DNA of 64,000 nucleotides, from IMG/VR virus record IMGVR_UViG_3300021426_000064, positions 120,342-184,341 of that record. One strand, 5' to 3'. The translations under genes were made by a program, and so were the position numbers. Numbering within the stretch: the stretch's first letter is position 1; each line of letters starts with the position of its first letter. Shown one piece after another: positions 7,029 through 63,981 of this stretch. The DNA is from a virus. Taxonomy: Duplodnaviria; Caudoviricetes. The notes beneath the pieces were generated by a model that worked only from the letters and a program-made list of their open reading frames with translations, was not told the DNA's origin and did no database searches.

Positions 7029-7231
7029 TATAGAGCTAAGTAGTTTTTTGTTAACGAGGTATAAGATGCTTAATTTAACCGAAAGAGTCGGCGCGGAGCC
7101 GAAAGTCACAAAAGGTGGTCTTCCCGGTGTATCGGTAAGCATCGGAGGGGCAATCCCCTTTGATGATGATGTACCGCCCACGCAGCCGAAAAAGAAAACC
7201 GCCAAAAGCGAAGATAAGAAGGCGTGACAAA

Positions 7232-7828
7232 ATGCCAATAATTCGCAGGCGAAAAACAGCGGTAAAACCTAAAACCGCAAGTAAGAGGACTTACGAGATT
7301 GATGGAAAGGTATATACAAGCAAATCCCTGAGAGACTATCATGTAGAGCTAAATGAATATGTAAAGTCAGGACTGATAAAATCCTTTGAATTGCCCGAAG
7401 GAAAACTCACAAAGTCTAAATTCCATTCCATCAAAGCGGTTATCAATGGTATCGAGTTTGATTCACTTAATGAATCTCGGTACTATATCCATGTTCTGGA
7501 GGAAGTAAAGGCCGGCAATATTAAGTCTTACGAACTTCAGAAAGCGTACGAAATTGTACCCGCCCATATCCGGCGCGGCAAAAAAGTACGCAAAATGGAA
7601 TACCTGGCAGACTTTGTTTGTCAGATGGCAGACGGCACAGAAAAGGTAATCGACGTGAAAGGGCTAGAAACGGATGTATTCAAGATGAAGAAAAAACTTG
7701 TTGAATATCTTTATCCGAATGTCGAAGTCGAATGTGTCCGTTATGTCGCAAAAGAAAAAGCGTGGCTTACAACAAAGGAATGTAAAGCACGCAAGAAGCT
7801 GGCATCCAAGGAGAGGAAGTCAGCCTAA
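7232..7828 (+). CDS. DUF1064-like PD-(D/E)XK endonuclease
   Basis: GIEFDSLNESRYY, YLADF, VIDVKG, FKMKKKL; start moved to ATG 7232. Confidence 0.8.
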   Translation: MPIIRRRKTAVKPKTASKRTYEIDGKVYTSKSLRDYHVELNEYVKSGLIKSFELPEGKLTKSKFHSIKAVINGIEFDSLNESRYYIHVLEEVKAGNIKSYELQKAYEIVPAHIRRGKKVRKMEYLADFVCQMADGTEKVIDVKGLETDVFKMKKKLVEYLYPNVEVECVRYVAKEKAWLTTKECKARKKLASKERKSA

Positions 7829-8882
7829 AACTAAAGAAACTGTGTGGATAATCTTCTGTGATTGGAAAATAACCAATAGAAAGAAGACTACCACCATAAA
7901 AAAGAGAAAGAAACTTTCTGAAGACGTCATTGTGCGAGACGCCGATAAGACCCAGATTTTTGAAAATGGTTTTGTAACCATAAGAACTGTTTTTAAGGAA
8001 GAAGCAGATTATCTCTGGGATTTGTATCAGCACGAAGATGAATGGCGCGAGATTGACGAACTTGTGCACCAGTATCAAGGACAGTTTGAGGAGGGTGCTA
8101 CGGAAGAAGCTCGCCGCATCGCAAATGAAGCGGGTACGGAACTCTTAAACAGATTCCAGCCGCTGTTTAAAAAATACGTGATACTTCTTAAAAATGGCCA
8201 GATCAATTTCCACAACAGCGAGCAGCGTCAGTTTGTTCGTCTGTTTATCCAGGAACTGCATTTGCAAAAGGCTCTAAGCCGAAAAAATCCTGGCCGGGAT
8301 TATCAGGAACAGATTACAGCCCGGTTTAATTTCTTAATCGAGGGCTATGGACACCAAGATGAAGACGAAATCTACGATGATATGCGGGTTATCTTCTTCA
8401 TGCTTGTTAAACGATACAAAGATGTTGGCCGCAGTTTTTGCTGCTACGTCTACAACGTGTTTAAGTACGAAGTTTGCCGTCATATTCAAAAGTATCAGCG
8501 CAACCCGGCAAACTTTCACTATAAAGTTGCAGAACTCGAGGATAACTGCAAAACAGTCATGGATGACTATTCTTCTATCGAAGATGTTATGTATGAAGAT
8601 GATCAGGGGCTTCCGGATATGACCTGGATTCGCGGAGATACATGCTCGGAAATCTTCCAGCAGTTTACGGACGAAGAACGCCTGATATTCTCGAAGTATT
8701 ATCTGCAGGATTGGAACGATAGTCAGATTGCTCAGCTTCTCGGCATGCACATTAACACGGCAAACCAGAGAAGGAAGAGTATCACCAGACGTTTGTGTAA
8801 AACACTTGGCCTGGATCCAAAGGACATTGTTCGGCATCGCAAATCCGGTAAAAGAGCTATCCTTAATACCGAGGTAGCATAA
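7698..8882 (+). CDS. phage RNA polymerase sigma-70-like factor
   Basis: Region 2-like segment (LLNRFQPL...RSFCCYVY) and region 4 HTH (FTDEERLIF...DSQIAQLLGMHINTANQRRK); true start probably downstream (e.g. GTG 7842). Confidence 0.7.
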   Translation: MLNIFIRMSKSNVSVMSQKKKRGLQQRNVKHARSWHPRRGSQPKTKETVWIIFCDWKITNRKKTTTIKKRKKLSEDVIVRDADKTQIFENGFVTIRTVFKEEADYLWDLYQHEDEWREIDELVHQYQGQFEEGATEEARRIANEAGTELLNRFQPLFKKYVILLKNGQINFHNSEQRQFVRLFIQELHLQKALSRKNPGRDYQEQITARFNFLIEGYGHQDEDEIYDDMRVIFFMLVKRYKDVGRSFCCYVYNVFKYEVCRHIQKYQRNPANFHYKVAELEDNCKTVMDDYSSIEDVMYEDDQGLPDMTWIRGDTCSEIFQQFTDEERLIFSKYYLQDWNDSQIAQLLGMHINTANQRRKSITRRLCKTLGLDPKDIVRHRKSGKRAILNTEVA

Positions 8883-8922
8883 AGCGGGGGCGTCACAGCC
8901 CCTAATTTTTTGGAGGAAAAAC

Positions 8923-9480
8923 ATGAATAAAACAAAAATCGGTGCAATTGTAATAACTGTATTGCTGGCATTATTTCTTGTGGGGAATTTTAACTCCCTC
9001 ACCAATAAGGATGTAGAGGTTCAGACGGCGGCAGCGCAGATTGATGTGCAGCTGCAGCGCCGTGCAGAACTTATCCCAAATCTCGTAAACACGGTTAAGG
9101 GATATGCTTCTCACGAAAAAGAAACGCTGACGGCTATTACAGAAGCTCGTGCAAAGTTGCAAGACCCGAATGCTACGCTTAAAGATAAAGCACATGCAGA
9201 TGGTGAACTCACCAGTGCTCTTAATCGGCTGATGATGGTACAGGAAAATTATCCGAACCTTAAAGCAGATGCACACTTCACCGAACTTATGCGTGAGCTT
9301 GCCGGTACGGAAAACCGCGTAACAGTAGCCCGCACCCGTTATAATAAAGCGGTGGCAGAATACAACACTTCTGTTCGCACTTTCCCCGGTAATATTTGCG
9401 CCGGCGTTTTTGGATTCTATCAGGCCGAGCCGATTGAAGCAACGGAAGCTGAAAAGAAGAATCCCGAAGTTAAATTCTAA
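8923..9480 (+). CDS. lemA: LemA family protein
   Basis: QLQRRAELIPNLVNTVKGYASHE, ENYPNLKA, TENRV..AR.RYN, FP.N. Confidence 0.95.
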   Translation: MNKTKIGAIVITVLLALFLVGNFNSLTNKDVEVQTAAAQIDVQLQRRAELIPNLVNTVKGYASHEKETLTAITEARAKLQDPNATLKDKAHADGELTSALNRLMMVQENYPNLKADAHFTELMRELAGTENRVTVARTRYNKAVAEYNTSVRTFPGNICAGVFGFYQAEPIEATEAEKKNPEVKF

Positions 9481-19753: not shown

Positions 19754-20947
19754 TTGGAAATTAAAAAGGAATATAACCAGTCTCTTGAAGAGACGTACGA
19801 TGATTGGAAGTATCGCATTATCCTTGGAAAAAGAGACGGTAAAGTAGATATGAGCTGGGATGAAATCATCTCTATGCTTGGCCTCACCTGTTCCAATGAT
19901 TATTTACGCAAAATAGCCGCGGGTATTGAGGGGTATCGCAATTATTTGCGAAATAGAAATGAAGAGACCTTAGAGAATGCACCGCAGTCCGCCATTGATG
20001 CTATTGACGATAAAGAGTTCCAGCTCCGCCGCCAAAAGATGCGTATGCAGGATCAGAAGCGTGAGCTTAATAAGAAACTTCGTGAATGGGCGCGGGCGGA
20101 ACATATTCAGGAAGAGTTTATTAAGGCTGTTAAAGACCTGCCAAAACTTCCCGAAGTCAATCCCATTAATAAGATTAATGGCGATAAAGAAGGCATACTG
20201 ATGCTTTCTGACTGGCATGCCGGTATGGTGTCGGACAATGCGTGCAATATATTTAATACCCGCGTTCTGCAGGAGAGAGTACAGACGCTGGTGGATAAAA
20301 CCATAGAGGCATGTGTCTGTCATAATATCAGTAAGGTACACATTTTCTGTCTCGGCGATATGGTCAATGGACTTATCCATGTGACCACCCGCATTAACAA
20401 CGAGGAAGATGTTGTTAAACAGAGCATGTTGGTGGCCGAACTTATCTGTAAGGTAATCAATGAGCTGTTGGAAGTGGCAGATGTTGAATTATACTGGAGC
20501 CGTGGCAACCATGATCGCGTAGTAGCTAACAAAAAAGAGTCAATCTGTACCGAGAGCTTTGCGGATATGATTCTCTGGTATATCAAGGCAAGGCTTGAAA
20601 ATACAGACGGGCTTTCCTTCCATGAAAATGAGGTGGACGATGAGATTGTCGTGGCAGACGTACTGGGTAACACTATATTCGCTGCCCATGGCCATAAAGA
20701 TAAACCGACAAAAGCCGTGGAAAATCTTTCTCTTCTCTTAAAGAAGTTCCCAGACATGGTTTTATTGGGGCATTTTCATAGCGCAGCAGAACGAGAAGTG
20801 CAGGGCGCGGAAGTCATTGTAAATGGTTCGCTCTGCGGAACGGATGGGTACGCATTTAGTTTGCGGTGTACAAGCCACCCGGTTCAGAAGTTCTTAGTAA
20901 TGAGCAAGCAAGGGCGAGAATGTACATATAATATTCGCCTCGACTAA
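19754..20947 (+). CDS. calcineurin-like metallophosphoesterase
   Basis: SDWH, LGD, GNHD, HGH, GHFH motifs. Confidence 0.88.
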   Translation: MEIKKEYNQSLEETYDDWKYRIILGKRDGKVDMSWDEIISMLGLTCSNDYLRKIAAGIEGYRNYLRNRNEETLENAPQSAIDAIDDKEFQLRRQKMRMQDQKRELNKKLREWARAEHIQEEFIKAVKDLPKLPEVNPINKINGDKEGILMLSDWHAGMVSDNACNIFNTRVLQERVQTLVDKTIEACVCHNISKVHIFCLGDMVNGLIHVTTRINNEEDVVKQSMLVAELICKVINELLEVADVELYWSRGNHDRVVANKKESICTESFADMILWYIKARLENTDGLSFHENEVDDEIVVADVLGNTIFAAHGHKDKPTKAVENLSLLLKKFPDMVLLGHFHSAAEREVQGAEVIVNGSLCGTDGYAFSLRCTSHPVQKFLVMSKQGRECTYNIRLD

Positions 20948-21103
20948 ATACATAACACATCATAGCTCGTCGGCAGCGGTAATATTGCTCATGAAATAAC
21001 ATACTTCAAAATATGTTAGGGGCTAAGGCTAGAGCGAGGGGCATAAGCCTTGTGCAAGAAAACACTCCAGAGAATAACACGATATGTAAGGGTGTGTGAT
21101 TTT

Positions 21104-21508
21104 ATGGAGCTTGAAGCGGTTGGGCAGATAGTTGGCGTACTTGGATTTTTAGGAACCGTATTTGGCTTTCTGTTTAAGACATACGGGAAAATCCGGGACT
21201 ATCTGAACACACAGAACAATTTTCAGGAGCGACTGGAAAACAAGACTGTTGAAATGAAAGATACTATGGCTGGCCTAAAAGAGGACGTTGCCAAAATTCG
21301 AGAGTCGGATATGGTCCAGTCGGAAGGATTGCAGTGTGTGCTCAGAGAACAGTTGCTTAAAAACATGGAGCCGTGCATAATTAACGGTAAGGCGGACGAC
21401 CATACACGAGAGAATGTTGAGCATATGTATGTTGCTTATCGGGCTCTTGGCGGCAACGGTATGATCGAAGCAATGTATAAGCAGTTTGGCAAGCTTCCGC
21501 CCGCTTAA
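21104..21508 (+). CDS. holin-like membrane protein
   Basis: N-terminal TM, coiled coil, Y..Y..LGGNG motif seen in Firmicute phage lysis-module proteins. Confidence 0.55.
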   Translation: MELEAVGQIVGVLGFLGTVFGFLFKTYGKIRDYLNTQNNFQERLENKTVEMKDTMAGLKEDVAKIRESDMVQSEGLQCVLREQLLKNMEPCIINGKADDHTRENVEHMYVAYRALGGNGMIEAMYKQFGKLPPA

Positions 21509-21554
21509 AAATGGCGTTCGTAATTCGAGCGTCGCAAAATATTATACCAGATAA

Positions 21555-21586
21555 AAATAAGGCATATATCTTGCCTTATTTTTTTA
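21555..21586 (+). terminator. intrinsic terminator
   Basis: AAATAAGGCA...TGCCTTATTT followed by a T-tract. Confidence 0.75.
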
Positions 21587-21708
21587 TGCTATAGGCGCCA
21601 TAAAACAGCATAAGTAGGCTGTAATAAGCGGACTGTAAGACTATTAATAAGCATAACCATAATAATAATGCTATAAAACGTAGGAGCTGTAGGAGGAATC
21701 CGTAAACA

Positions 21709-22641
21709 ATGTCAATGACAAGTATTAAGCAAATAAATGGCGGCAAAGAACTTCAAGGCGATGTTCACGCCCTGTTAAATATAGTTGGAAAAGATAAGGA
21801 AGCGTTCTTTAACGAAATACTTAACTGGCTTTTGTCGGAAGCGCCGCAGGATTTTAATCCAGAAATTCTTAGAAGTAGTAAGTTAGTTAAGTTAGTAAGC
21901 TCGGCAGTAACAGTAAATAATGAATCTGACGTGCCGACAAAAACTCCTTACCTTAGCTTTATAGAGGAAAATGGTGAGCCATTCACTCTTAAGACTAATA
22001 ATCTAGCCAAAAACTGGGATGGCACTCTTGAGTATTCAACTGATACTCAGAATTGGTCTGAGTGGGATGGCGCCGAAATTAGTTCTTCTAGTGATGGTAA
22101 GTTATATCTAAGGGGTATAGGAAATTCCAAAATTACTGGTAGTATTAACATACAATTTGTGCTAACCGACAACAAACGTATTCAATGTTTGGGCAACATA
22201 GAAAACTTATTAGACTACGCAACAGTATCTGCAGGTAATCATCCTGTAATGGCTGATTTTTGCTATAGCTCCATATTCTGTGACTGCACTTCCTTAACTG
22301 CAGCACCAGCGCTTCCCGCCACTACTTTAACTAAAATTTGTTATTCTAAGATGTTCAGTGGCTGTACTTCTCTTACTCAAGCACCTGAACTTCCTGCAAC
22401 TATTTTAATTAAAAATTGCTATACTCAGATGTTCAAAGGATGTACTTCCCTTACTAAAGCCCCAGAAGAACTTCCAGCTACTACATTGGCAGGAAATTGC
22501 TATAGCAGCATGTTCGCTGACTGTACTTCCCTCACTGGTACTATTCATTGCCCTGCATCTACGGCAAATGATGAATATAGACTTGATGCCAATTCTAATA
22601 ATATTCCAGCTAATACTGCTACCGTAGTTTATGACCTATAA
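21709..22641 (+). CDS. virion fibre/adhesin with BspA-like LRR repeats (family A N-terminus)
   Basis: Repeats AP.LPATTL...CY..MF..CTSLT; N-terminus MSMTSIKQINGGKELQGDV is shared with 33013 and 35886. Confidence 0.7.
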   Translation: MSMTSIKQINGGKELQGDVHALLNIVGKDKEAFFNEILNWLLSEAPQDFNPEILRSSKLVKLVSSAVTVNNESDVPTKTPYLSFIEENGEPFTLKTNNLAKNWDGTLEYSTDTQNWSEWDGAEISSSSDGKLYLRGIGNSKITGSINIQFVLTDNKRIQCLGNIENLLDYATVSAGNHPVMADFCYSSIFCDCTSLTAAPALPATTLTKICYSKMFSGCTSLTQAPELPATILIKNCYTQMFKGCTSLTKAPEELPATTLAGNCYSSMFADCTSLTGTIHCPASTANDEYRLDANSNNIPANTATVVYDL

Positions 22642-22658
22642 ATAAAGGAGTATCTTAT

Positions 22659-23681
22659 ATGCTTTCATTAGCTCAGACGATAAAAGACTTAAAAAATAAT
22701 ATAGTAAATATCTTAAACACCATGGCGCCCAAAACATACGTTGACAAAAAGGTGGCTGATTTAGTTAATGGAGCGCCGGCGCAATTGGATACGCTTCAAG
22801 AATTATCCAAGGCGTTGAATAATGATAAGGACTTCGCTACAACAGTCAATAACTCCATCGCTAAGAAATTGAATATAGCCGGTGGTACGATTACTGGGGA
22901 CCTTACAGTAAATGGTGCGCTAACAGGCAAGGCAAGTACGGCGGGAGTAGCCGATCGTGCTTTAAAAGCCGATGCATGCACTGGCAATGCCGCGTCAGCT
23001 TCCAGTGTTGCTTGGTCTGGAATAACCGGTAAGCCATCCAGCTATACACCTTCTGCGCATAATCACGATAGTGCGTATCCTTCTACAACCGGAGTAAGGG
23101 CATCAGGGACTTGGGGTATCAATATTACCGGTTCTGCGGGTGGAGTAGCTTGGGCAAATGTATCAGGCAAACCCACTTCTTTTACTCCGGCAAGCCATGG
23201 TCATGGTTGGGGAGAAATTAGTGATAAACCGGCACAAGCAACGAGATGGCCAACTTGGGGTGAGGTATCAGGAAAGCCTACCTCCTTTACACCTGCTACA
23301 CACAATCATGCTTGGAATGACATTACGGGTAAACCATCAACATTTACGCCATCTGGCCATAGCCATGGATGGGGCGATATCACTGGCGCACCGGCCACGG
23401 CTACGCGTTGGCCGACCTGGGATGAAATAACAGGCAAACCCGCTACCTTCCCGTCTAGTGGTGGCGGTACAGCGTCCAGTGTGGCATGGAATAATATTAC
23501 AGGTAAACCATCGACTTTTGCACCGTCCAGCCATGGTCATGCATGGGGAGAGATTAGTGGAGCTCCGGCACAGGCGACCAGATGGCCGGCATGGAGCGAA
23601 GTTTCCAGTAAACCCGGAAGGATCGTTACCGTTGCATCTTGGGATGCTAGTACGGGTGTTCTGAAATTAAAAACGGTGTAA
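22659..23681 (+). CDS. tail fibre protein with W..I.GKP..F.P..HxH repeats (family B N-terminus)
   Basis: GAPAQLDTLQELSKALNND.DFATT tail-fibre motif; repeated HxH motifs. Confidence 0.85.
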   Translation: MLSLAQTIKDLKNNIVNILNTMAPKTYVDKKVADLVNGAPAQLDTLQELSKALNNDKDFATTVNNSIAKKLNIAGGTITGDLTVNGALTGKASTAGVADRALKADACTGNAASASSVAWSGITGKPSSYTPSAHNHDSAYPSTTGVRASGTWGINITGSAGGVAWANVSGKPTSFTPASHGHGWGEISDKPAQATRWPTWGEVSGKPTSFTPATHNHAWNDITGKPSTFTPSGHSHGWGDITGAPATATRWPTWDEITGKPATFPSSGGGTASSVAWNNITGKPSTFAPSSHGHAWGEISGAPAQATRWPAWSEVSSKPGRIVTVASWDASTGVLKLKTV

Positions 23682-23693
23682 AGGATGTAGTCT

Positions 23694-24290
23694 ATGTCTC
23701 TTATTATTTCTGACGGCGAGCCAAAAGATATACAACTAAATGGAGCCGCCGTAAAAGAAGTTTGGTTTGACGGCAAAAAAGTTTGGCCTATTTTTGCCGT
23801 TATTATTGATGAATATACGATAACGGGTACGCTTACAACAGGTCTGTACTGGGAAAAAGAAAACGCAGATGGCGACTGCGAAGCGGTTGACCAGTGCTAC
23901 GGCAATTGTCAGAACTCTGGTGTGCTTATTGACTGCGCAGGCGAAGGATATGAAAACTTCGTTGGCTATAAGTTGGAGTTAATTTTCAGTGCGCCCATTA
24001 AACATTTTCCGATAAAATACATTTCAAAATCTGGCGCCACAGTAATTATTGAAATTAACAAATTTAAGTACGACAAAGAAAAAGGTACGTACACCCATGA
24101 CTTTGGCGTATTAAAAGAGCTTGAACAAGTTCAATCCATATACCCTGCCGAAGGAGTAAAAGACTATAGCGTTTTCACATCTTGCAACATCACCGATGTA
24201 AACGAAGTGCCAGAGGATTGCTCCGAACCAGATTGTCAGTGCTCAGAGGAAATAAATTGTCCCGATGACGGCGCTGATGGCGGATTGTAA
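23694..24290 (+). CDS. Cys/acid-rich tail-associated protein, candidate radical SAM substrate
   Basis: N-terminal IQLNG..VKEVWFDGKKVWP fibre-associated motif; CEAVD, CNITD, CSEPD motifs. Confidence 0.65.
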   Translation: MSLIISDGEPKDIQLNGAAVKEVWFDGKKVWPIFAVIIDEYTITGTLTTGLYWEKENADGDCEAVDQCYGNCQNSGVLIDCAGEGYENFVGYKLELIFSAPIKHFPIKYISKSGATVIIEINKFKYDKEKGTYTHDFGVLKELEQVQSIYPAEGVKDYSVFTSCNITDVNEVPEDCSEPDCQCSEEINCPDDGADGGL

Positions 24291-24307
24291 TAATAAAAGG
24301 TAAAAAA

Positions 24308-25342
24308 ATGAAGAAAAAAGTAAAAAAGATATTTTTCATGCTTGGCCCCAAATGCAACCTTCAATGTAAATACTGCTTGCAGCATGATATGGTTGAGTAC
24401 GACACAGTAACCGTAAAGCCGGAAGTTAAGGAATGGCTGCGAGAACAAGTGCCGACAGATTCAGAACCCCCATTTTGGGTTATCTTTTATGGCGGAGAAC
24501 CGCTAGTTTATTGGGACACCATAAAAGACATCGTAAAAAGTGTAAGAGGAAATGTCCAATATTCTATGATATCAAACGGAAAATTAATGACGGCCGATAA
24601 AGTCGATTTCATTAATGACTACGGTATGTGTACCATGATTTCATGGGACGGGGCCAATGTAGAAAAGACCCGTGGATATGATGTTGTAAAAAGCAATCCA
24701 TGTATTTTAGACATAAAAAAGCTTGGCTTCTCGGCCGTACTAAGCTCTTATACATATCCTCTGGATTTTCTGAACGAAGCAGAGCCCATCCTTGCGGAGT
24801 ATAAAAAAATCCATGGTTATGCTCCGATGATTAATATAGACACAATTATGGATTTTGGAAATTGCGGAGAACTACGTAAAATGGATTGCCGCAAGATTTC
24901 TGAACAGATGAATTTTATAATCAAACACAAGAAGGATAAGGGCTCGTATTACGGCATAGTTAGTAGGCTACAGAAGAAATATGTATTCTATAAGGAATAT
25001 GTAGACAAGCGCGCCGTTTGCGGAAACGGCTACACTATCTGGAATGTGGATATTAATGGAGATCTTTACCGCTGTCATAACTGCGGCGAAAAAGTAGGAA
25101 CTATCCATGACGACCCCGAAGATATTCTGGCTAGAGTAAAAGCCATTGACCCCACTTATGAATATTACAAGAGCAAATGTAAGGATTGCCCGGCACAGCC
25201 GTTATGCCGCAGCGGATGTCCGATGATAGACGCTCAAGGGCGCGAAGATTATTTTTGCGGCATCCGAAAAGCATATTTGGGGCCAATCATTGAAGACTTT
25301 AATACTCCTAAGGAAACAGGAAGGATAATACACATTGGGTAA
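24308..25342 (+). CDS. radical SAM/SPASM-domain protein
   Basis: CNLQCKYC, FYGGEPL, ISWDG, SPASM C..G...GDLYRC...CKDC..QPLCRSGC...C. Confidence 0.92.
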   Translation: MKKKVKKIFFMLGPKCNLQCKYCLQHDMVEYDTVTVKPEVKEWLREQVPTDSEPPFWVIFYGGEPLVYWDTIKDIVKSVRGNVQYSMISNGKLMTADKVDFINDYGMCTMISWDGANVEKTRGYDVVKSNPCILDIKKLGFSAVLSSYTYPLDFLNEAEPILAEYKKIHGYAPMINIDTIMDFGNCGELRKMDCRKISEQMNFIIKHKKDKGSYYGIVSRLQKKYVFYKEYVDKRAVCGNGYTIWNVDINGDLYRCHNCGEKVGTIHDDPEDILARVKAIDPTYEYYKSKCKDCPAQPLCRSGCPMIDAQGREDYFCGIRKAYLGPIIEDFNTPKETGRIIHIG

Positions 25343-26090
25343 CGATATAGTAAAAGAACAATCCGTTTATGTGCCGCAAGAACAACTTATCTTGGGGAAT
25401 GTACTTGGAAGCACTCACTATGGGCTTGCGGATGAATGGTCTGATCGAGACGTATGCTATCTGTTAATGCCGTCTAAGCGGGATTTGATCCGCGGGCGAA
25501 AACCTCAGCGCCTACTATTTAAAGAGCAGTGTGATATCAGTATGTTTGATATTCGCAGCCTGATGTTCTTTATTGCTGAAGGCGACATTAATAAACTCGG
25601 ACTATTCTTTAACGATGACTATATGTATGTAGCTCCCCAGTTTAAGGATTTCGTCGACCAGCTTATCGCGCGGCGAGAAGATTTAATCAATACTATTTCG
25701 CCATCTATACATGCTTGGGCTTTGAATATGTTTGAGTATAAACTGGGGCAAATCCATTACTACAAGGATGCTGAAGAAAAATACAAGCAGTTCGGTTACA
25801 ACACGAAGAATGTGGCACAGGCTATTTATTATATCCGCATAGCCATGCAGTATTTTATCAACCGTAACTACAGCGTAGAAAATCCTATGCTAAAAGCCTA
25901 TGATTGCTCCGGTTTTCGTGATGAAATCCTAGATATCAAACACGGCAAGTACTCGGAAGAGGAAGCTGTAGCTATAGCTGAAGCAGAATACGCGAAATTA
26001 ATCGGTATTACCAACTTAGGAAGAAACCATAACGTAGGTTGGGTTAATCAACTGGTTTACGGCGAAATAGAAAAAATGTTAGGAACGTGA
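25335..26090 (+). CDS. Pol-beta superfamily nucleotidyltransferase (RlaP/YcgL-like)
   Basis: GSTHYGLADEWSDRD (GS...D.D), GYNTK, ILDIKHGKY. Confidence 0.8.
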   Translation: MGNDIVKEQSVYVPQEQLILGNVLGSTHYGLADEWSDRDVCYLLMPSKRDLIRGRKPQRLLFKEQCDISMFDIRSLMFFIAEGDINKLGLFFNDDYMYVAPQFKDFVDQLIARREDLINTISPSIHAWALNMFEYKLGQIHYYKDAEEKYKQFGYNTKNVAQAIYYIRIAMQYFINRNYSVENPMLKAYDCSGFRDEILDIKHGKYSEEEAVAIAEAEYAKLIGITNLGRNHNVGWVNQLVYGEIEKMLGT

Positions 26091-26096
26091 CGAATC

Positions 26097-26615
26097 ATGT
26101 TAACCCTACCTCAAATAATAAAAGACTTATTGTCTAAAGCTAAAACCATTAGTAATAATATCACAGAAACTTATGTTAAGAATTTAATCACTACGGAAAT
26201 AGAGCGCTCTATCTCTTCTTCTACTGATGGGCCATTATATTTAGCTATTAAAAACGCGGCTTTTACCAACCTTCCTCCCAAGATTGGTTATGGCAAAGAA
26301 AAGACGCTTACAATCACCCCCATCGGGGGACAATTAAAAGTAAATATCCCCTCGCAGGCAATATACTTAGGTGGATTCGGCAGCATTATCCCCGCACAAA
26401 CGATAAGCCTGCCAGCTAATCAGGATAATTACATTTATGTGGTCCGCGACGCCGCCGACTATACAAAAGTAAACTTTGAGATTTACGACCACTTACTTGG
26501 CGGAAAAGATAAAGATATCCACTTTACCCGTATTCTTTGCGCCCGTTTTAAGACGAATGGTTCTAAGGTTATTGAACAGGAGGCGTTCGAGACAGCGAAC
26601 TATTCCTGTTTTTAA
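26097..26615 (+). CDS. tail-associated protein, minimal family B member
   Basis: Shares MLTLP..IKDL, NLPPKIGY and IYLGG...NYIY blocks with the next two genes. Confidence 0.7.
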   Translation: MLTLPQIIKDLLSKAKTISNNITETYVKNLITTEIERSISSSTDGPLYLAIKNAAFTNLPPKIGYGKEKTLTITPIGGQLKVNIPSQAIYLGGFGSIIPAQTISLPANQDNYIYVVRDAADYTKVNFEIYDHLLGGKDKDIHFTRILCARFKTNGSKVIEQEAFETANYSCF

Positions 26616-26636
26616 CAATATGCATGGAGAGATTTT

Positions 26637-29189
26637 ATGTTAACGCTACCATTAATCTTAAAAGATTTAAAGAATTCTATAGGAATAGCGTACACTACGG
26701 TTACAAACGCCACCTTCCTAAATCGCATTAAAAATCGCATTAAGGAATCCGTCAACACGAATTCCTCATCTGGTGAAATATACAACGCTGTTAAGGATGC
26801 AGCGTTTACCAATTTGCCGCCCAAAATCGGCTATCTCGACGAAAAGACTGTCCCGATGTACGCTGCTTACAATATGAGCAACATGGCCGTGACCGACTTA
26901 CCTTGCTGGATTACTTCGGACTTGGAAGGGCGAGAGATTACCTATTTTAGAGCGTCTCAGGACGGAGCGCATGGCCTTCAGATATATCGCGCCTTTAGAA
27001 GTAACTTATCTGACACGAACGGCTATACTGTAGAAAATCAGCCACTAGCAATAACGATTGATGGCGTAGATACAAAGTTTAATCGTGTATATGGTATCTC
27101 TAACGATTATATTGTCTTACAGGCAGAAAATGGAAAACGTTACCACTTTGCTACCTACTATTCTTCCAATACGGACAACTGGAAGTTAATGCGAGAAGTT
27201 ACTCGTTTTAATAGCTACGGCGATGTAATGGATATCCTTTGGTTCGATTCAGTAAAAAGATACCTTGTTGTATGCCAAACCGGACAGGGAATGGTATATC
27301 TCGTTGCAGATGAAAATCTGAACGAAATGTATCGCGATATGGTTTTTGACTTTACGCAGTTTCACCATAGTGGCAAACCAACCTGGACGTATCATTATAG
27401 CACGTATGGCAATACAGCTTCCGCAGCATACATACCAGACCAGAACCGGCTGGCAACCGTATTCCGAATGGATGCGAATGTCAGAGAAAACGGCTTTGTC
27501 ATTTACAACTCGGATATGGCGCATCATCCATTGTATTGTAATACCATCAGTAATTTTACCCCAGACAAACTACTGACAAATCATTACTTCGCTACGGCGC
27601 AATGGGATACCCCATTAGCCACTTATTACGATGCGGCAAAGTGGGATTGGTGGGGCGATAATACGGTTAAGATGGCTACGGGATTAACCAGCCGTGGCAC
27701 AGAATACTGCCAATATGACTCGCTGAATAAAATGTTTTATTACACGCATGGTGTTCGCGACTGGGCCGGCGTATATATCAAGCGTATCGCCGTTGAAAAC
27801 CTAAGTTCAAGGGCTGGCACTCGTTTTTTGGATGACAACGCCGGACAAGGATGGAACTGGCAAACACCAGACACTTCTCCGTGGGCCAAGCAAACATATG
27901 CCCCTTCCGTGATGTATGACTCTATCGTTTTACGCGCGCAGTCTAACAAGTACGGCGGTGCGTGGAATAATATTATTATTGCGCCGGAGACGACATCCAA
28001 TGCAAATATACTGGCTGTTACGGCAGGCTCGTGGGCTGTAGGCGGTGGCGATATAACAAATATTGACTGGGCTGCAGGGTATGGGCGTTATTCCTGCACG
28101 AAGGAAAACTTCAATGCTAAAGATGGCGTGTCATGGTATCAAATTCTGGAAGAGAATGGGTACTACAATGTTTACCGTCTAGATTATAAAGCTCGTAAGG
28201 ATCAGGTTGGCAATACTTACAACGACAATGTGTATCGCCCCGCAAACCCTATAGCTAAATTTAAAAAGACTCTTAACTTTGTTGGAGGCATAACGTCATT
28301 TGGCTCTTGGGCTTTTAGAAGCGCATCTTTTGGCGGCGGTAATAAGCTCATCATCTTCGGGCGCATTTCAAGCAATTATAAATGTGTGAAGAATAGTGAA
28401 GGCAAGTACGTTCCGCAAGACGAGAACGCTATGCCGGCCTATTATTTTATCTCGGAAGATGGAAGCTATTACAAGGTAGATTTACCGCAAAACATGCGCG
28501 ACTGGTATTTATCTGAAGCAAGTGACCGATGGCCATATATCCGAAATCCAGATTGGGTTAACCGTACGCCCTTCCTGGATAGTGACGGTCTGACGCTCTA
28601 TTATAATAGTCATGAATTCTATCATGGCAATGGCGATTACTGCTTCGCTGGTTGGAGAGTAATTTTTTCTTCCGACCTTAAGACTGCTACAAAAGTTGAT
28701 TCTGTAGCTGCAGGTGATGGCACATGGTGTGGCATCGAAGTTCTTGGTTGGAATAAGCGCTTCGGTTATTATCGTACTCGCACCAGAAACCGTACAGGCT
28801 CTTTAATCGATACCAGCGCTACAAGCCCGATTAATGTCATTAACCTTGGCGGTGACGTAAAAACATATACCATCAATAATAGTGGCTCGGTAGGTCTAAT
28901 CGCTTATATTCAGGCAACGCCTATTTATCTCGGCGGTTATTACAGCGTACTGCCTGCTACGGAAGTATATCTAAAAGCCAATAGTGACAATTACATTTAC
29001 CTATCCAGAGATAAATTGGACTACCAGAAAATAAACGTAGAGAATTACGACCATTTGCTGGGGGCACAGAATAACGATATGGGCATTAACTTCTCCCGTA
29101 TCCTTATCTCGAAAATAACTACGGATAATAAAGGCGCTACGAGCCAGGAGTATTTTAATATCGATTATTACGGAGCAAGCAAGTCATGA
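26637..29189 (+). CDS. large beta-rich receptor-binding/tail protein (family B)
   Basis: 850 aa; family B termini around an aromatic, beta-rich insert. Confidence 0.7.
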   Translation: MLTLPLILKDLKNSIGIAYTTVTNATFLNRIKNRIKESVNTNSSSGEIYNAVKDAAFTNLPPKIGYLDEKTVPMYAAYNMSNMAVTDLPCWITSDLEGREITYFRASQDGAHGLQIYRAFRSNLSDTNGYTVENQPLAITIDGVDTKFNRVYGISNDYIVLQAENGKRYHFATYYSSNTDNWKLMREVTRFNSYGDVMDILWFDSVKRYLVVCQTGQGMVYLVADENLNEMYRDMVFDFTQFHHSGKPTWTYHYSTYGNTASAAYIPDQNRLATVFRMDANVRENGFVIYNSDMAHHPLYCNTISNFTPDKLLTNHYFATAQWDTPLATYYDAAKWDWWGDNTVKMATGLTSRGTEYCQYDSLNKMFYYTHGVRDWAGVYIKRIAVENLSSRAGTRFLDDNAGQGWNWQTPDTSPWAKQTYAPSVMYDSIVLRAQSNKYGGAWNNIIIAPETTSNANILAVTAGSWAVGGGDITNIDWAAGYGRYSCTKENFNAKDGVSWYQILEENGYYNVYRLDYKARKDQVGNTYNDNVYRPANPIAKFKKTLNFVGGITSFGSWAFRSASFGGGNKLIIFGRISSNYKCVKNSEGKYVPQDENAMPAYYFISEDGSYYKVDLPQNMRDWYLSEASDRWPYIRNPDWVNRTPFLDSDGLTLYYNSHEFYHGNGDYCFAGWRVIFSSDLKTATKVDSVAAGDGTWCGIEVLGWNKRFGYYRTRTRNRTGSLIDTSATSPINVINLGGDVKTYTINNSGSVGLIAYIQATPIYLGGYYSVLPATEVYLKANSDNYIYLSRDKLDYQKINVENYDHLLGAQNNDMGINFSRILISKITTDNKGATSQEYFNIDYYGASKS

Positions 29190-31585
29190 TGTCATTAGCG
29201 CAAACAATAAAGCATTTAAAAAATACGATAACGAATTACACTAACTTTATCAATAGCAAGTCTATCGAGAACTTCGCTACCACTAAGATAGTCAATTATA
29301 TTAACGGAACTGAAGGCGGCGCAAAATCTATCCGCAATATGATTAAAAATAGAACGTTTAAAAATTTGCCGCCTAAAATTGGTTACTTCAATGAAACCAC
29401 TGTACCGTTAATTGCTAACTTCAATATGTCGATTAATGCGGATGCTCCGTGGGTAATTTCGGACGACCAGGGACGAGAGCTAATGTATTTCCCTGCGAAG
29501 GGGAGTCCTACGGACTCGGTTAAGGTATTCAGAGCATATCGTATGAGCACAGGTTCAGGCTTCATCTATGAAAACGAACCGATAATTCCAGGATATCTTG
29601 AGAACGACGGCAAATATCTAACCAACATACGTGGACTAGGCAATCAATACATGGTTGCTATCACAACGGGCGGAAGGGTTCATATTATTAATACTTTTGG
29701 TGAACCGGATACATGGACGTTAGAAGCAGATATTACCGATTTATACAACTCTGTTCCAGATATTCGCCTGAGTGTTATCTACTTTAAGGAATATGGTACG
29801 ATTTACATTCCCGGCACCGTAGGAGACGGCCATAACATTGGAGGCCGATTATACAGAGTGTCTACTGGCGAGCTAATAAAGACAGATAAAATCTTTGATT
29901 TTGTACAAGTAATTGAAGAGCAAAACTCAAACATAAAAACGATGTATGCTGAAATAGGAGACGCTGCCGCGGTTTATAACGAAGCAACGAGCGAAATAGC
30001 TTGGCTTGGACGTAGCTATATTCAATGGTACAACTCGGATAACTCGGTAAGTGCAAATTATCATTCCATGTTAGTGCTGTGCGACTGCCCCAAAGAGCAT
30101 TTTATGGATGGACGTGGAACGTTAGTCAACAAGATACCAAACAGCGAATATAAAATACAAGCGCACAAAAGAGGGTTATGCCCGCGAGGAGATAGCGGAA
30201 TGAGGCACGCTACATACGACTCAATGGAAAAGGTAATTCGAACCGTTTATCGATATCAGAGTTCAGATTCAATTGATTTGTTTACCAGAAGCGCTACATC
30301 TTCAGTAAGTCATGCCTGTGATTACTTCTTAGGTGGACTTGTCACATCTGGTATTCAAAGCTCTGATGCTGCGCCATGGGCTAAACGAATGATGCAGCCA
30401 GTGGTCTATAATGATGACACATATTTGTATGGCATAAGTAAGAAATATGGCGGACAGCGTATCCATGTGGATTTTGTGACAGACGGCAACGGATTGTGCA
30501 ATATAACAGCGGGAACGTGGTGGCTGTCCGGGTCGTACGGGGATTGCGGAGATTTGTCCCTACCTCTGATCTCCTGTATTAAGACAGGAAACTCGTCTAA
30601 GTTTTATTACACCGACGGCAGTAATATTGCGAGAGAGATTCGCACAGAAAGCTTTACATCGGATGATTATGCGCGAAATGGTAGAAGATACTTGGTTGAC
30701 ACAGATATTAAAGCGCCGGGGATACCGTCTGGTTATTTCATTAAATCGAGGATGTATAATCCTAAGTGGAATAAATGGTTCTTTATATCCGAAAAGAGCG
30801 GGACGGCTTTGGCTGGTGATACTTTTCTATTAGAATATGATATCACAACTGGAGCATGGACGGAGCATTGGGATGAACGACCACAGTCGTGGCTGGATGC
30901 TGCACAAGCCTCTTTGAGTAGTCTGGGAAATTATTCGGGATGTGGCGTATCATCAAACGCGTTTATCGATGACGACGGTACTATGTATTTTAGGGTATGC
31001 TTCAATTTTATCGGCGGCTCTGGCAATGAGCATCTGATTAAGTTAACTCGCAACGGGAATAACTATACGATGACTCCCGTGGGTGGCGCGGTAATGTCCG
31101 GCACTTACGCTTCCAACCATCATATGTTTGGCTGGAATAACAAGTATCATTACTTCTTTGCGTGGGGGTCAGTAGTAGGAACTACGGAATCTCGAATTTA
31201 TTCTACTAGGCATTGGGGAGATTCGCCAGACAAGCCTAACGGCGCAAAGTCATTATTTGAAGACGGTGATTACTATACTTGGCGTTTTGTATGTGCCAGC
31301 GCTACTGGTATGGTTTGTTACCTACAGGATACACCGGTATTTTTAGGCGGTTACTTCTCAACGGTTCCCGCTAAGGAAATCCCCCTTAAACCGAATTCTG
31401 CTAACTATATTTATTTCCATAGAAATAGTGATGATTACAAGGTAGTAGACGTAGAGGTAACACAGTCGCCGCGAAATGATGTGGACGGTTTTAACCGTAT
31501 CTACCTTACCAAGGTGGTAACAAACGCCGATGGTCCTGTATCGCAGGAATATAATCAGATAGATAATTATCATAAGAAAAGATAA
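29186..31585 (+). CDS. large beta-rich receptor-binding/tail protein (family B)
   Basis: 799 aa; paralog of 26637 (PW...D..GRE..YF.A, PWAK, KYGG, GWN.K). Confidence 0.7.
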   Translation: MMSLAQTIKHLKNTITNYTNFINSKSIENFATTKIVNYINGTEGGAKSIRNMIKNRTFKNLPPKIGYFNETTVPLIANFNMSINADAPWVISDDQGRELMYFPAKGSPTDSVKVFRAYRMSTGSGFIYENEPIIPGYLENDGKYLTNIRGLGNQYMVAITTGGRVHIINTFGEPDTWTLEADITDLYNSVPDIRLSVIYFKEYGTIYIPGTVGDGHNIGGRLYRVSTGELIKTDKIFDFVQVIEEQNSNIKTMYAEIGDAAAVYNEATSEIAWLGRSYIQWYNSDNSVSANYHSMLVLCDCPKEHFMDGRGTLVNKIPNSEYKIQAHKRGLCPRGDSGMRHATYDSMEKVIRTVYRYQSSDSIDLFTRSATSSVSHACDYFLGGLVTSGIQSSDAAPWAKRMMQPVVYNDDTYLYGISKKYGGQRIHVDFVTDGNGLCNITAGTWWLSGSYGDCGDLSLPLISCIKTGNSSKFYYTDGSNIAREIRTESFTSDDYARNGRRYLVDTDIKAPGIPSGYFIKSRMYNPKWNKWFFISEKSGTALAGDTFLLEYDITTGAWTEHWDERPQSWLDAAQASLSSLGNYSGCGVSSNAFIDDDGTMYFRVCFNFIGGSGNEHLIKLTRNGNNYTMTPVGGAVMSGTYASNHHMFGWNNKYHYFFAWGSVVGTTESRIYSTRHWGDSPDKPNGAKSLFEDGDYYTWRFVCASATGMVCYLQDTPVFLGGYFSTVPAKEIPLKPNSANYIYFHRNSDDYKVVDVEVTQSPRNDVDGFNRIYLTKVVTNADGPVSQEYNQIDNYHKKR

Positions 31586-31603
31586 AGGATAAAGTGAGTA
31601 TGT

Positions 31604-32197
31604 ATGGATACCAAAAACTATAAGATTGATGTCAAAACATCGAGAACTGTAGAAGCTTTGTTTTTGGAATTAAATGTCTACAAAGAAAGACGAAAATTGA
31701 CTTCTATCACTAAGAAAATAGAGTCTGACTTTGAGGCTGTCTTATTAACGAATGAAAAACATCAGTTAAATCGTGGAGTATTATGGGCTACGCCGAAAGA
31801 AGCAATGCAGGTGGCCCCGAAAATAATTGAACAGCGGTTGGTTCTTGCGGAGGATTTAACAGACCTTTCCATGACATTTTCAAACCTTAGCTCTTTAGAA
31901 TATGTAGATCTATCAGACTGGGATACTTCAAGAGTTACAAATTTTGATTCGATGTTTAACCACTGTGATAACCTGAAGAGAATTGACGGTGTAATTGATT
32001 TATCTAGTATTGACAAAGTGTTTATTCCATACAAAAGCAACCCTTTAGGCAATATGTTTTATAGTTGTAAGGCATTAGAGAGCAAGGTTGTTATAAAAAA
32101 TCCGCCATCAGATTACCTTGATATAGAAGACGGAAGAATCAAATGGGAAAAATATACCCAATTATCGTTAGACAAATTTGAATTCATTTTTGAATAA
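31604..32197 (+). CDS. DUF285/BspA-like LRR protein (family C N-terminus)
   Basis: LDLSDWDTSRVTNFDSMF..C-type repeats. Confidence 0.75.
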   Translation: MDTKNYKIDVKTSRTVEALFLELNVYKERRKLTSITKKIESDFEAVLLTNEKHQLNRGVLWATPKEAMQVAPKIIEQRLVLAEDLTDLSMTFSNLSSLEYVDLSDWDTSRVTNFDSMFNHCDNLKRIDGVIDLSSIDKVFIPYKSNPLGNMFYSCKALESKVVIKNPPSDYLDIEDGRIKWEKYTQLSLDKFEFIFE

Positions 32198-32206
32198 GGA
32201 GAAAGT

Positions 32207-32875
32207 ATGAATACTAAAACTTATAACGTCAATTTAAAAGCTAAGAAAACTGAACTCGGTGGAGAACTATCCATTAACGTCGTAAAGTCAAGCGACGTTA
32301 TCAGCAGGCGCAAGTCGTATGATGCCAATATGGCATTAATCATACTTCAGCAACATCACTGGATGGACATGATTTACCCCGATGATTACGACACTATGAC
32401 TAAATTGCGCGACGAATTTATGCTTGATCCATCCATGGATGATCTAGGCACCATGTTCAGTGGCTGTGTCAGCCTAGAAGAAATTGACACCCATTTGTTT
32501 AACACTTCCAATATTAAACGCATGGATGGCATGTTTCAAAACTGCGCCTCTGTAAAAAGATTAGATCTGCGTCATTTTGACGTAAGCAAGGTAGAAGATA
32601 TGACCAGTATGTTTGAAGGATGTTCTGAATTAGAGAGTCTAGATTTTTCAGGCTGGGACACTTCCAAAGTTCAAAACTTTAACCGGCTATTTTTTGATTG
32701 CCCCAATCTAAAGGAAATAAAGGGGGTGTTGGATTTATCATCTGCCATATCCAACGCTTATTGCTTTGCCGACAATAAGAATAACGTCTTGAAGTTAAAG
32801 ATAAAGAATGTGCCCAGTGGTTTTAATATCAAAAGGACTGGGCTTAATGAGAACCAACTGGAAATAGTTTCCTGA
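32207..32875 (+). CDS. DUF285/BspA-like LRR protein (family C N-terminus)
   Basis: FNTSNIKRM..MF, FDVSKVEDM..MF, WDTSKVQNF repeats. Confidence 0.8.
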   Translation: MNTKTYNVNLKAKKTELGGELSINVVKSSDVISRRKSYDANMALIILQQHHWMDMIYPDDYDTMTKLRDEFMLDPSMDDLGTMFSGCVSLEEIDTHLFNTSNIKRMDGMFQNCASVKRLDLRHFDVSKVEDMTSMFEGCSELESLDFSGWDTSKVQNFNRLFFDCPNLKEIKGVLDLSSAISNAYCFADNKNNVLKLKIKNVPSGFNIKRTGLNENQLEIVS

Positions 32876-41973: not shown

Positions 41974-42537
41974 ATGCTTAGAAGAATACCAGGATTAAGT
42001 AAAATGTTTAACGGCGGGACGCGTACAGTGGGTGATATGCCAAACCTTTTCCAGTTCCCGGAGTATGCGCCAGGAGACGCATTAAAACAGTATAAAGGTG
42101 GCGGCTCGTATCTGTTTAACGCTAAACTGCGGGAAGGGATTCCTCTCGACGCACAGGACAAGGCACTACAAAGAGGCTTAGATCGTGACCTGAACGCTCT
42201 ACCAGACTATCAGGAGCCGACATTCAGGTCGTATGATTTCCTTGACCAGGAAAGTTTAAGCGAATTTTTAGAGCAGCATAAACCCGGCCATATGGTGCAG
42301 TATCCTGCTTACACATCATCCGCCAAAAGTCCTAATGCATACTACGCTCCGAACGGAACGGGCATGCAGGCACTGATGAAAATTAATGGCAAACATGGAA
42401 AAGACTTAGCACACGTAGAATCCGCCTCAAACAATGAGCAGGAAGTGCTGTTTGGACGAAAATCTATGTTCAGGGTTAATAATATTGGGTATTCCCCTGA
42501 GATGAAGACTTATTTTGGCGAAATGGACGAAATATAA
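41974..42537 (+). CDS. R-S-E clade ADP-ribosyltransferase (VIP2/C3-like)
   Basis: N..LR, TFRS (R), YTSSAK (STS-like), NEQEVLF (ExE). Confidence 0.85.
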   Translation: MLRRIPGLSKMFNGGTRTVGDMPNLFQFPEYAPGDALKQYKGGGSYLFNAKLREGIPLDAQDKALQRGLDRDLNALPDYQEPTFRSYDFLDQESLSEFLEQHKPGHMVQYPAYTSSAKSPNAYYAPNGTGMQALMKINGKHGKDLAHVESASNNEQEVLFGRKSMFRVNNIGYSPEMKTYFGEMDEI

Positions 42538-63804: not shown

Positions 63805-63814
63805 AGCACGGCCT

Positions 63815-63981
63815 CCCTTCTCGAAAATTTTGTCCCCTATCGAAGCAGGGGGGTAACACCCACCAAAGTGGGGTAAGTTGTCCGTAGCCAATGTTATCCT
63901 GAGGCTTTGTATATTTGCAGCACTGTCCCTACCCATCAGGATTGTTTAACTACAAACCGCAGTGCGGCAGATTCGGACTCA
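63815..63981 (-). ncRNA. omega RNA (HEARO-like), partial
   Basis: CTGCGG...TTAAACA.TCCTGA.GGGTAGGGACAGTG.TGCA...CCTCAGGATAACATTGGC pattern typical of IscB leaders. Confidence 0.75.

Follow-up and report, generated by a model that had tools for sequence, protein, structure and literature searches.

The window analysed here is a stretch of 64,000 nucleotides (bases 120342-184341) of a 184 kb virus record from IMG/VR, which is about 78% complete by estimate. It harbors a gene for a radical SAM enzyme with a SPASM domain (rSAM) within a cluster of tail-fibre genes, immediately downstream of a gene for a 198-amino acid (aa) protein that is rich in cysteine and acidic residues and is the candidate substrate of the enzyme. 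Homologues of the enzyme recurrently lie beside proteins that end in similar Cys/acid tails. Since a DnaE-type polymerase, a primase, a helicase and RecJ are all encoded in it, the record originates from a large phage; the DNA is present in an animal gut metagenome, which may be the sample it came from, and no RNA data set was listed among the sequencing runs that contain it. A protein identical to the rSAM of the window is also present on a 334 kb contig.

The fibre-cluster locus and its 198-aa protein

The 198-aa gene follows the gene of a 340-aa tail fibre with a spacer of 12 nt, and is itself separated by 17 nt (24291-24307) from the rSAM gene, which overlaps the next gene, encoding a nucleotidyltransferase (NTase), by 8 nt (Table 1). 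Ribosome-binding sites precede both the 198-aa gene and the rSAM gene (AAAGGT for the latter), and fibre-type genes flank the pair on both sides. A sequence-only reading of this locus had described a tail fibre, a Cys-rich protein directly after it and a complete rSAM/SPASM gene 17 nt further on. This arrangement was recovered: the fibre matches tail-fibre PHROGs, and the enzyme scored above the cut-offs of PF04055 (38.9 bits vs 29.5, E 1.3e-9) and of the SPASM model TIGR04085 (40.2 bits vs 27). The open reading frames (ORFs) and peptides quoted in that reading (DGDCEAVDQCYGNCQ, SCNITD and EDCSEPDCQCSEEINCPDD) were all located where it had placed them, the peptides within 23694-24290. When 20900-32300 was scanned for promoters and terminators, the counts equalled chance and did not inform on the operon limits.

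The nine cysteines of the 198-aa protein (positions 62, 68, 72, 81, 164, 176, 181, 183 and 189) are all confined to residues 55-85 and 160-198, and its 39-residue C-terminal tail holds 11 Asp or Glu residues and not a single Lys or Arg. Among the 166 ORFs of at least 50 aa called in the 184 kb record, a 30-residue segment with at least five Cys and at least six Asp/Glu occurs solely in this protein, which adjoins the only rSAM gene of the record. Three C-X3-D motifs and one C-X3-E motif are present, the same count as given earlier. Compared with shuffled sequences this count yielded P = 0.057 for the whole protein and P = 0.14 when the Cys/acid-rich segments were kept intact. It is the clustering of Cys in two acid-rich segments that is non-random in this protein, and not the number of CX3[DE] motifs.

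Three modules make up the protein: the N-terminal motif, a core predicted to be a beta-sandwich, and the Cys/acid tail. In the AlphaFold2 (AF2) model the core strands (residues about 40-57 and 86-170) reached predicted local distance difference test (pLDDT) values of 70-85; confidence was low for the N-terminus, for loop 58-83 (pLDDT <50) and for tail 174-198 (pLDDT <50). Foldseek retrieved nothing from the PDB at E<=0.001, a wide VIA-align comparison returned just generic Ig/FN3-like sandwiches (Z<=4.6), and no usable match was obtained in the ESM Atlas. Neither this protein nor the Cys-rich proteins encoded at related loci matched a family in Pfam, NCBIfam or PHROG, and tblastn against GenBank phages did not identify any match. 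The family is small: 7 close homologues were found, and a profile search among 1.84 billion entries yielded 21 representatives.

In the same type of search the N-terminal motif was detected on other protein bodies: a 61-aa protein (locus L086), a Cys-free protein with a tandem core (P0133), a Gly-rich protein of 298 aa (P0144) and a protein of 1797 aa that carries it internally (P0139). The motif is hence a portable module, although its modularity showed solely in the profile search, as residues 1-38, when compared by phmmer with the ORFs of the same genome and of the surveyed loci, recovered orthologues only. A gene of the 198-aa type lies directly after a fibre gene in seven of eight distinct loci, and in L002, L003, L005, L081, L083 and L086 the core protein is immediately preceded by a TF340-like fibre. 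Both the recurrence of the motif and this gene order agree with the fibre-associated N-terminus proposed earlier, and the motif probably serves to dock the protein to the preceding fibre.

The three fibre-type proteins encoded downstream (172, 850 and 799 aa) have two blocks in common, one N-terminal (MLTLP..IKDL...NLPPKIGY) and one C-terminal, and the 172-aa protein resembles these two blocks fused without a large insert. The first ~15 residues of the fibre encoded at 22659 are also common to these proteins.

Table 1. Positions of the features discussed, numbered from the first nucleotide of the window
Feature	Position	Strand	Basis
LRR protein	21709-22641	+	gene order
Tail fibre, 340 aa, His/Trp-rich repeats, C-terminus ...SWDASTGVLKLKTV	22659-23681	+	phrog_23676 tail fiber, E 7.5e-44
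198-aa Cys/acid-rich protein, candidate substrate	23694-24290	+	ORF and translation
N-terminal motif, residues 1-33 (..PKDIQLNGAAVKEVWFDGKKVWP)	23694-23792	+	profile search
Beta-sandwich core (predicted), residues 39-172	23808-24209	+	AF2 model
Cys-rich loop interrupting the core (predicted), residues 58-83	23865-23942	+	AF2 model
C-terminal Cys/acid tail, residues 174-198 (PEDCSEPDCQCSEEINCPDDGADGGL)	24213-24287	+	holds invariant C181 and N-C-P-D-D-G
rSAM/SPASM enzyme, 344 aa	24308-25342	+	PF04055, TIGR04085
Radical SAM cluster motif C16-X3-C20-X2-C23	24353-24376	+	
SPASM cysteines C238, C256, C291, C294, C300, C304, C317	25019-25258	+	
NTase, 251 aa, pol-beta fold and helical C-domain	25335-26090	+	phrog_388, E 2.3e-15
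Three more fibre-type proteins	26097-31585	+	common N- and C-terminal blocks
ADP-ribosylglycohydrolase	42510-43523	-	E 2e-49
1061-aa protein with Peptidase_C39-like domain	50415-53600	-	
RtcB RNA ligase	54022-55227	-	PF01139, E 6e-57
RRXRR/HNH protein	62539-63936	-	

Linkage of radical SAM genes with cysteine-tailed proteins

The neighbourhood of the enzyme was surveyed in 80 viral loci with rSAM homologues, in which ORFs were called and the enzymes were clustered at 60% identity, resulting in 41 clusters. An ORF within 2.5 kb whose last 25 residues contain at least three Cys and at least three Asp/Glu was regarded as a tailed neighbour. Among the 24 clusters whose enzymes were related to that of the window at E<=1e-25, 17 had such a neighbour, compared with 3 of the 17 more distant clusters (Fisher P 0.0013). 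Counted by ORF, 66 of 671 near an rSAM gene carried a tail vs 1 of 221 farther away (P 8e-8). The linkage of rSAM homologues to Cys-rich tail genes, which the sequence-only reading had put forward as a check of its proposal, is therefore a recurrent one.

It is the tail that goes with the enzyme, and not the protein body. rSAMs of 44-50% identity in L004 and L084 lie just after unrelated proteins of 447-454 aa with long C/D tails; the 61-aa protein of L086 consists of the N-terminal motif and a DDCDDNDDCDDSCDGE tail alone; and in a Sporomusaceae bacterium genome (GCA_018835585.1, L090) an unrelated 161-aa protein ending NCDCNCDC...CGDDG(DG)n precedes the rSAM gene. Several of the tailed proteins show repeats that can be recognised as those of fibres, or are matched by the PHROG family phrog_9648 (tail protein).

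Within the 198-aa family, an alignment of nine diverse members identified C181 as the sole invariant cysteine. It is always preceded by Asp or Asn and is located about ten residues past the last core strand. The sequence beyond it ranges from two residues (DCDN, NCDVS) up to about 45 C/D-rich residues. Over 52 distinct tails of the whole class, the residue before Cys was Asn 102 times and Asp 66 times. Typically, [GS]DD comes after the last Cys, whose distance from the C-terminus is 4-5 residues in 31 of the 52. The typical ending across related loci is [ND]C[ND]C[GS]DD, with which the NCPDDG of the window agrees. The window tail as a whole (..DCQCSEEINCPDDGADGGL), beside a PapB-like rSAM/SPASM gene in a fibre cluster, fits the class pattern of [N/D]-C repeats ending in C-x-D-D, and its end (..INCPDDGADGGL) is a slightly extended version of the typical one. 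The sub-family of the window is set apart by the beta-sandwich core, the extra Cys-rich loop, a more acidic and less regular tail and an obligate NTase partner. Tail length and Cys number (1 to >10) are highly variable among close homologues; together with the low AF2 confidence, this makes the tails look like substrates.

The sequence-only reading had taken CX3D as the motif that defines the putative substrate. This did not hold: besides the count at chance level, homologues have lost the CX3D motifs of C62 and C164, and two homologues carry no acidic residue after C181. CX3D as the defining motif of the family was therefore rejected, and the conserved unit is instead [D/N]-C near the C-terminus.

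Some of the related loci differ in composition. In L086 (JGI 3300028048 contig, L086:4476-7621) the fibre gene is followed by the gene of the 61-aa protein, which has no core, and by that of a 107-aa N-terminal rSAM fragment with an intact CX3CX2C motif. Next come a 299-aa tandem-duplicated core without Cys in loop or tail and an rSAM-like protein of 307 aa from which the Cys triad has been lost and in which the SPASM cysteines are kept; the NTase gene is last. This locus represents either a split enzyme or decay alongside the loss of the tail cysteines. A larger module was found in L006 to L043 (e.g. L006:6055-6798 and 7188-8961). Besides a fibre and an rSAM it encodes one or two 98-148-aa proteins that have CQ[ST]CQ[GS] repeats and end in NCDCGDDGG; further members are a protein of 131-146 aa, one of 273 aa with the ending KLGRKWYEVWNEYNL, and another rSAM, which is more distant. 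NCDCDCGDDM is the ending of a 207-aa protein encoded upstream. In the bacterial locus (L090:5865-8074) the rSAM is a homologue of 39% identity, and the 161-aa protein before it ends NCDCNCDCDCSSDC...CGDDG with a long stretch of (DG)n behind. It is adjoined by a 79-aa paralogue that lacks Cys, and helix-turn-helix and DUF722-type regulators are encoded nearby; the locus may be a prophage remnant.

Achromobacter phage JWF and Ralstonia phage RSP15 likewise encode distant rSAM relatives within their tail-fibre clusters. As for the proposal of the sequence-only reading that the cross-links would replace disulfides in an anaerobic host, the source of the window is a gut metagenome; Achromobacter and Ralstonia, however, are aerobes. 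In RSP15, a cultivated phage (NC_030948, L092:1257-2129), a protein annotated as 'putative side tail fiber protein' ends ...SNTNCQCGN and is encoded two genes upstream of the distant rSAM homologue (446 aa, 23% identity). In JWF the rSAM gene lies inside the fibre cluster, and no obvious Cys tail was seen.

The radical SAM/SPASM enzyme, its relatives and the nucleotidyltransferase

Exactly ten cysteines are invariant in the rSAM homologues (44 of 44 sequences). They comprise C16, C20 and C23 of the radical SAM motif and the seven SPASM cysteines, which follow the pattern CX9-15GX4C - CX2CX5CX3C - C (C238-x12-G251-x4-C256; C291-x2-C294-x5-C300-x3-C304; C317). An eighth cysteine is not conserved, C186 being present in 27 of the 44 homologues. 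The ligands of the auxiliary clusters were mapped by alignment to CteB, using its published ligand list (PMC10177961). By this alignment C238, C256 and C304 correspond to C344, C362 and C413 of CteB, the ligands of a three-Cys auxiliary cluster 1 (AC1), and C291, C294, C300 and C317 correspond to C400, C403, C409 and C432, the ligands of a four-Cys auxiliary cluster 2 (AC2). In PapB and Tte1186 the substrate (seleno)cysteine binds an iron of AC1 (PMC10177961). Because the ten cysteines match the ligands of CteB and AC1 binds the substrate thiol in homologues, the cofactor layout is, by sequence, that of the Cys-thioether synthases.

The N-terminal recognition element (RRE) for precursors of peptides that are synthesized on ribosomes and modified after translation (RiPPs) is absent from the phage enzyme. 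Its first cluster cysteine is residue 16, compared with C104 in CteB and C119 in PapB (PMC10177961), which leaves no room for an RRE, and its alignment opens at CteB residue 94-96. A prediction of the complex of the rSAM, with three 4Fe-4S clusters and SAM, and tail residues 150-198 scored 0.02 vs a mark of 0.32, which speaks neither for nor against an interaction.

Among solved structures, a profile of the 44 homologues matched CteB (5wgg, E 3e-31), 8vpo (E 3e-26) and the anaerobic sulfatase-maturating enzyme anSME (4k36-4k39, E 1.6e-19). The best NCBIfam matches were, in this order, PapB (E 1.6e-26), QhpD (E 3.7e-16) and the SCIFF maturase (E 2.8e-15), with all equivalog models far below their cut-offs. 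These matches suggest an enzyme of the thioether-maturase type, as had been proposed from the sequence alone.

The best solved relative, CteB, belongs together with Tte1186 to the maturases of SCIFF ranthipeptides such as CteA, and has the CX3CX2C motif, the seven SPASM cysteines and the three-Cys AC1 in common with the phage enzyme. Unlike the latter, which aligns to CteB 96-417, it carries an N-terminal RRE. The 198-aa protein, with its predicted fold, also differs from a SCIFF precursor in lacking a SCIFF-type leader, and the enzyme scored 56 bits with TIGR03974 (cut-off 425). PapB, which matures PapA to freyrasin (NF047865), is the best NCBIfam match, at 93.4 bits vs a cut-off of 340; the phage system differs from it in having no RRE, no leader and no regular CX3D repeats. 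With 198 aa and a core that is predicted to fold, the candidate substrate is also unlike the short leader-bearing precursor with conserved CX3D motifs of the PapB type.

QhpD, also of the rSAM/SPASM kind, matures the gamma-subunit of quinohemoprotein amine dehydrogenase by introducing Cys-to-Asp/Glu thioethers, and so acts on a subunit which stays within a larger assembly and not on a secreted peptide. By analogy, QhpD and its substrate QhpC (TIGR03906) would be the closest functional counterpart for a virion protein, and QhpD is the second-best NCBIfam match. However, the phage enzyme scored 58.8 bits vs a cut-off of 453, and no QHNDH genes are found nearby, the neighbours being fibre genes and the NTase gene. 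anSME works on a folded protein without an RRE, and resembles the phage enzyme as an RRE-less rSAM/SPASM of comparable size whose target is a Cys within a full-length protein. In contrast, the phage enzyme scored 46 bits with TIGR03942 (cut-off 349) and its pattern of Cys ligands follows CteB.

The NTase is the conserved third gene of the module. A homologue of 248-261 aa follows the rSAM in L002, L003, L005, L081, L082, L083 and L086 and precedes the core protein in L088 and L089, so that despite rearrangement it is present in all eight distinct loci with the beta-sandwich core protein. It is absent from L004 and L084. Residues G25, S26, D37, D39 and D72 are invariant in eight homologues, and the protein has the features of the pol-beta fold, hG[GS]-x(9-13)-D-x-[DE] with a third carboxylate, in a two-domain arrangement like that of kanamycin nucleotidyltransferase. 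The AF2 model (pLDDT 91.7) retrieved ANT(4'), the kanamycin nucleotidyltransferase, and Hailong HalB with Foldseek (E ~2e-5), which suggests a similar fold. A sequence search of solved structures gave no match below E 0.1. The RlaP model PF10127 matched with 22.3 bits, below its cut-off of 23, and seven of the eight homologues match it weakly (best E 3.8e-5). RlaP is the 'RNA repair pathway' NTase family, and the NTase might act in RNA repair, separately from the rSAM. The phage also encodes an RtcB RNA ligase.

Substrate, chemistry and alternative explanations

The combination of gene order, conserved residues and linkage suggests that the fibre-associated 198-aa protein is probably modified enzymatically, and we consider it rather likely that this neighbour is the substrate of the rSAM. 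That the enzyme cross-links the loop and tail of this fibre-cluster protein by thioethers is favoured here as a reading with about even chances of being right. With regard to the product, a thioether of the Cys-Asp/Glu type is a tentative and somewhat doubtful assignment. The RiPP-like interpretation given in the sequence-only reading thus stands in part: the type of enzyme and its linkage to Cys-tailed proteins agree with it, and CX3D as the defining motif had to be abandoned. Neither the conserved NTase partner nor the lack of an RRE and a leader figured in that reading.

In the cross-linking reading, the 198-aa protein is probably docked to the preceding fibre by its N-terminal motif. A cysteine of its tail, in particular [D/N]-C181, would be bound by the enzyme at the open iron of the three-Cys auxiliary cluster, and a hydrogen would be removed from a residue close by (Asp, Asn, Glu or the C-terminal one). 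Intramolecular S-C (thioether) cross-links would thereby form in the loop and tail, and these could rigidify or lock the tail independently of the redox state. In PapB the acceptor carboxylate is C-terminal to the Cys at any spacing, and the terminal residue can be used (PMC12373016). The class-wide C-[GSP]-D-D ending would fit this carboxylate rule, and a similar freedom in spacing and terminal residue would accommodate both the C-x-D-D endings and the acid-free short tails. The full scheme, in which a leaderless rSAM/SPASM enzyme installs S-C cross-links in a host-recognition protein of the fibre tip and, in this sub-family, the NTase adds a second modification to the same protein, would amount to RiPP-type modification of a structural protein of the virion and is rather unlikely to apply in all its parts.

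Several observations weigh against cross-linking of a virion protein. Seven of the 24 close clusters have no tailed neighbour within 2.5 kb (e.g. L008, L034 and L038/39), and none was found in the available sequence of L085, which was fetched separately. The CX3D motifs are not conserved, and because the tails of L081 (NCGNAQPT) and P0134 (NCGKH) carry no acidic residue past the invariant Cys, a Cys-to-Asp/Glu link cannot be universal. The enzyme has no RRE and the candidate substrate no leader by which it could be recognised. The similarity to characterised maturases is so remote (93 bits vs the PapB cut-off of 340; ~25% identity) that the chemistry cannot be read from it. The alternation of C-x-C with Asp/Asn also looks like a metallothionein and thus like a metal-binding sequence. 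Finally, gene position and the N-terminal motif are the sole indications that the 198-aa protein is part of the virion, and we regard its presence there and its absence as equally plausible.

Binding of metal is the alternative that fares best, and we still judge it unlikely. The Cys/acid segments would then hold Zn, Fe or an Fe-S cluster, possibly at the fibre trimer axis, and the rSAM, perhaps with the NTase, would have a different target: a nucleotide, a small molecule or one of the other fibre proteins. C-x-C with Asp/Asn resembles the ligand arrays of metallothioneins, low AF2 confidence is expected where folding needs metal, some rSAM homologues lack a tailed neighbour, and the conserved NTase hints at non-peptide chemistry. 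However, the number and spacing of cysteines past the core vary from 1 to >10 in close homologues, unlike in a fixed metal site. Moreover, the tail tracks the rSAM across unrelated bodies, tailed ORFs are about 20 times as frequent near rSAM genes as farther away, and the closest relatives of the enzyme all modify Cys-containing peptides or proteins.

Alternatively, the rSAM might modify the tail by another chemistry, a possibility to which we assign a distinctly low likelihood. Candidates are a Cys-to-Asn beta-thioether of the NxxcB type at the [N/D]-C dyads, a sactionine (S-C-alpha) link, formylglycine as formed by anSME, or inter-chain locks of a trimer. The predominance of Asn and Asp before the tail cysteines and the two family members without an acid after the invariant Cys would agree with this, as would the significant similarity to anSME, which is RRE-less. 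A formylglycine target of the anSME type was rejected, as the sulfatase motif C/S-x-P/A-x-R is absent and the tail contains no Arg or Lys. In addition, the seven-Cys pattern with a three-Cys AC1 is that of CteB and PapB, whereas AC1 of anSME is fully ligated. Beta, gamma and alpha regiochemistries are not separated by the present data.

Least probable is that the 198-aa protein is not part of the virion and instead acts as a diffusible RiPP-like product (a bacteriocin or signal freed at lysis) or as an assembly chaperone: the enzyme family is known from RiPP pathways, the 61-aa protein of L086 has a leader-plus-core look and L006 to L043 encode small CQxCQx-repeat proteins, but no peptidase or exporter gene adjoins the 198-aa gene, a folded core of 130 residues is predicted, tails elsewhere form part of proteins of 207-906 aa, of which some have fibre repeats, and the place directly after a fibre gene is conserved.

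A literature search in a limited full-text collection retrieved no paper on rSAM modification of phage fibre proteins, in agreement with the earlier statement that no characterised example in phage structural proteins is known. To our knowledge, rSAM cross-linking has so far been described for peptide natural products and for one dehydrogenase subunit. New in this study are the diverged sub-family with a beta-sandwich core, its conserved NTase partner, the mapping of the cluster ligands and the negative result on CX3D.

If the cross-linking reading is correct, radical SAM cross-linking would also serve in the maturation of virus particles, and phage fibres would gain covalent locks that are independent of redox state and possibly resistant to proteases. 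It would explain a recurrent and unannotated gene pair of phage tail modules. The enzyme would be an RRE-independent maturase that reads a short C-terminal tag on folded proteins, with possible use in protein engineering, and heterologous production of such phages or of their receptor-binding proteins would need the maturase together with anaerobic Fe-S conditions.

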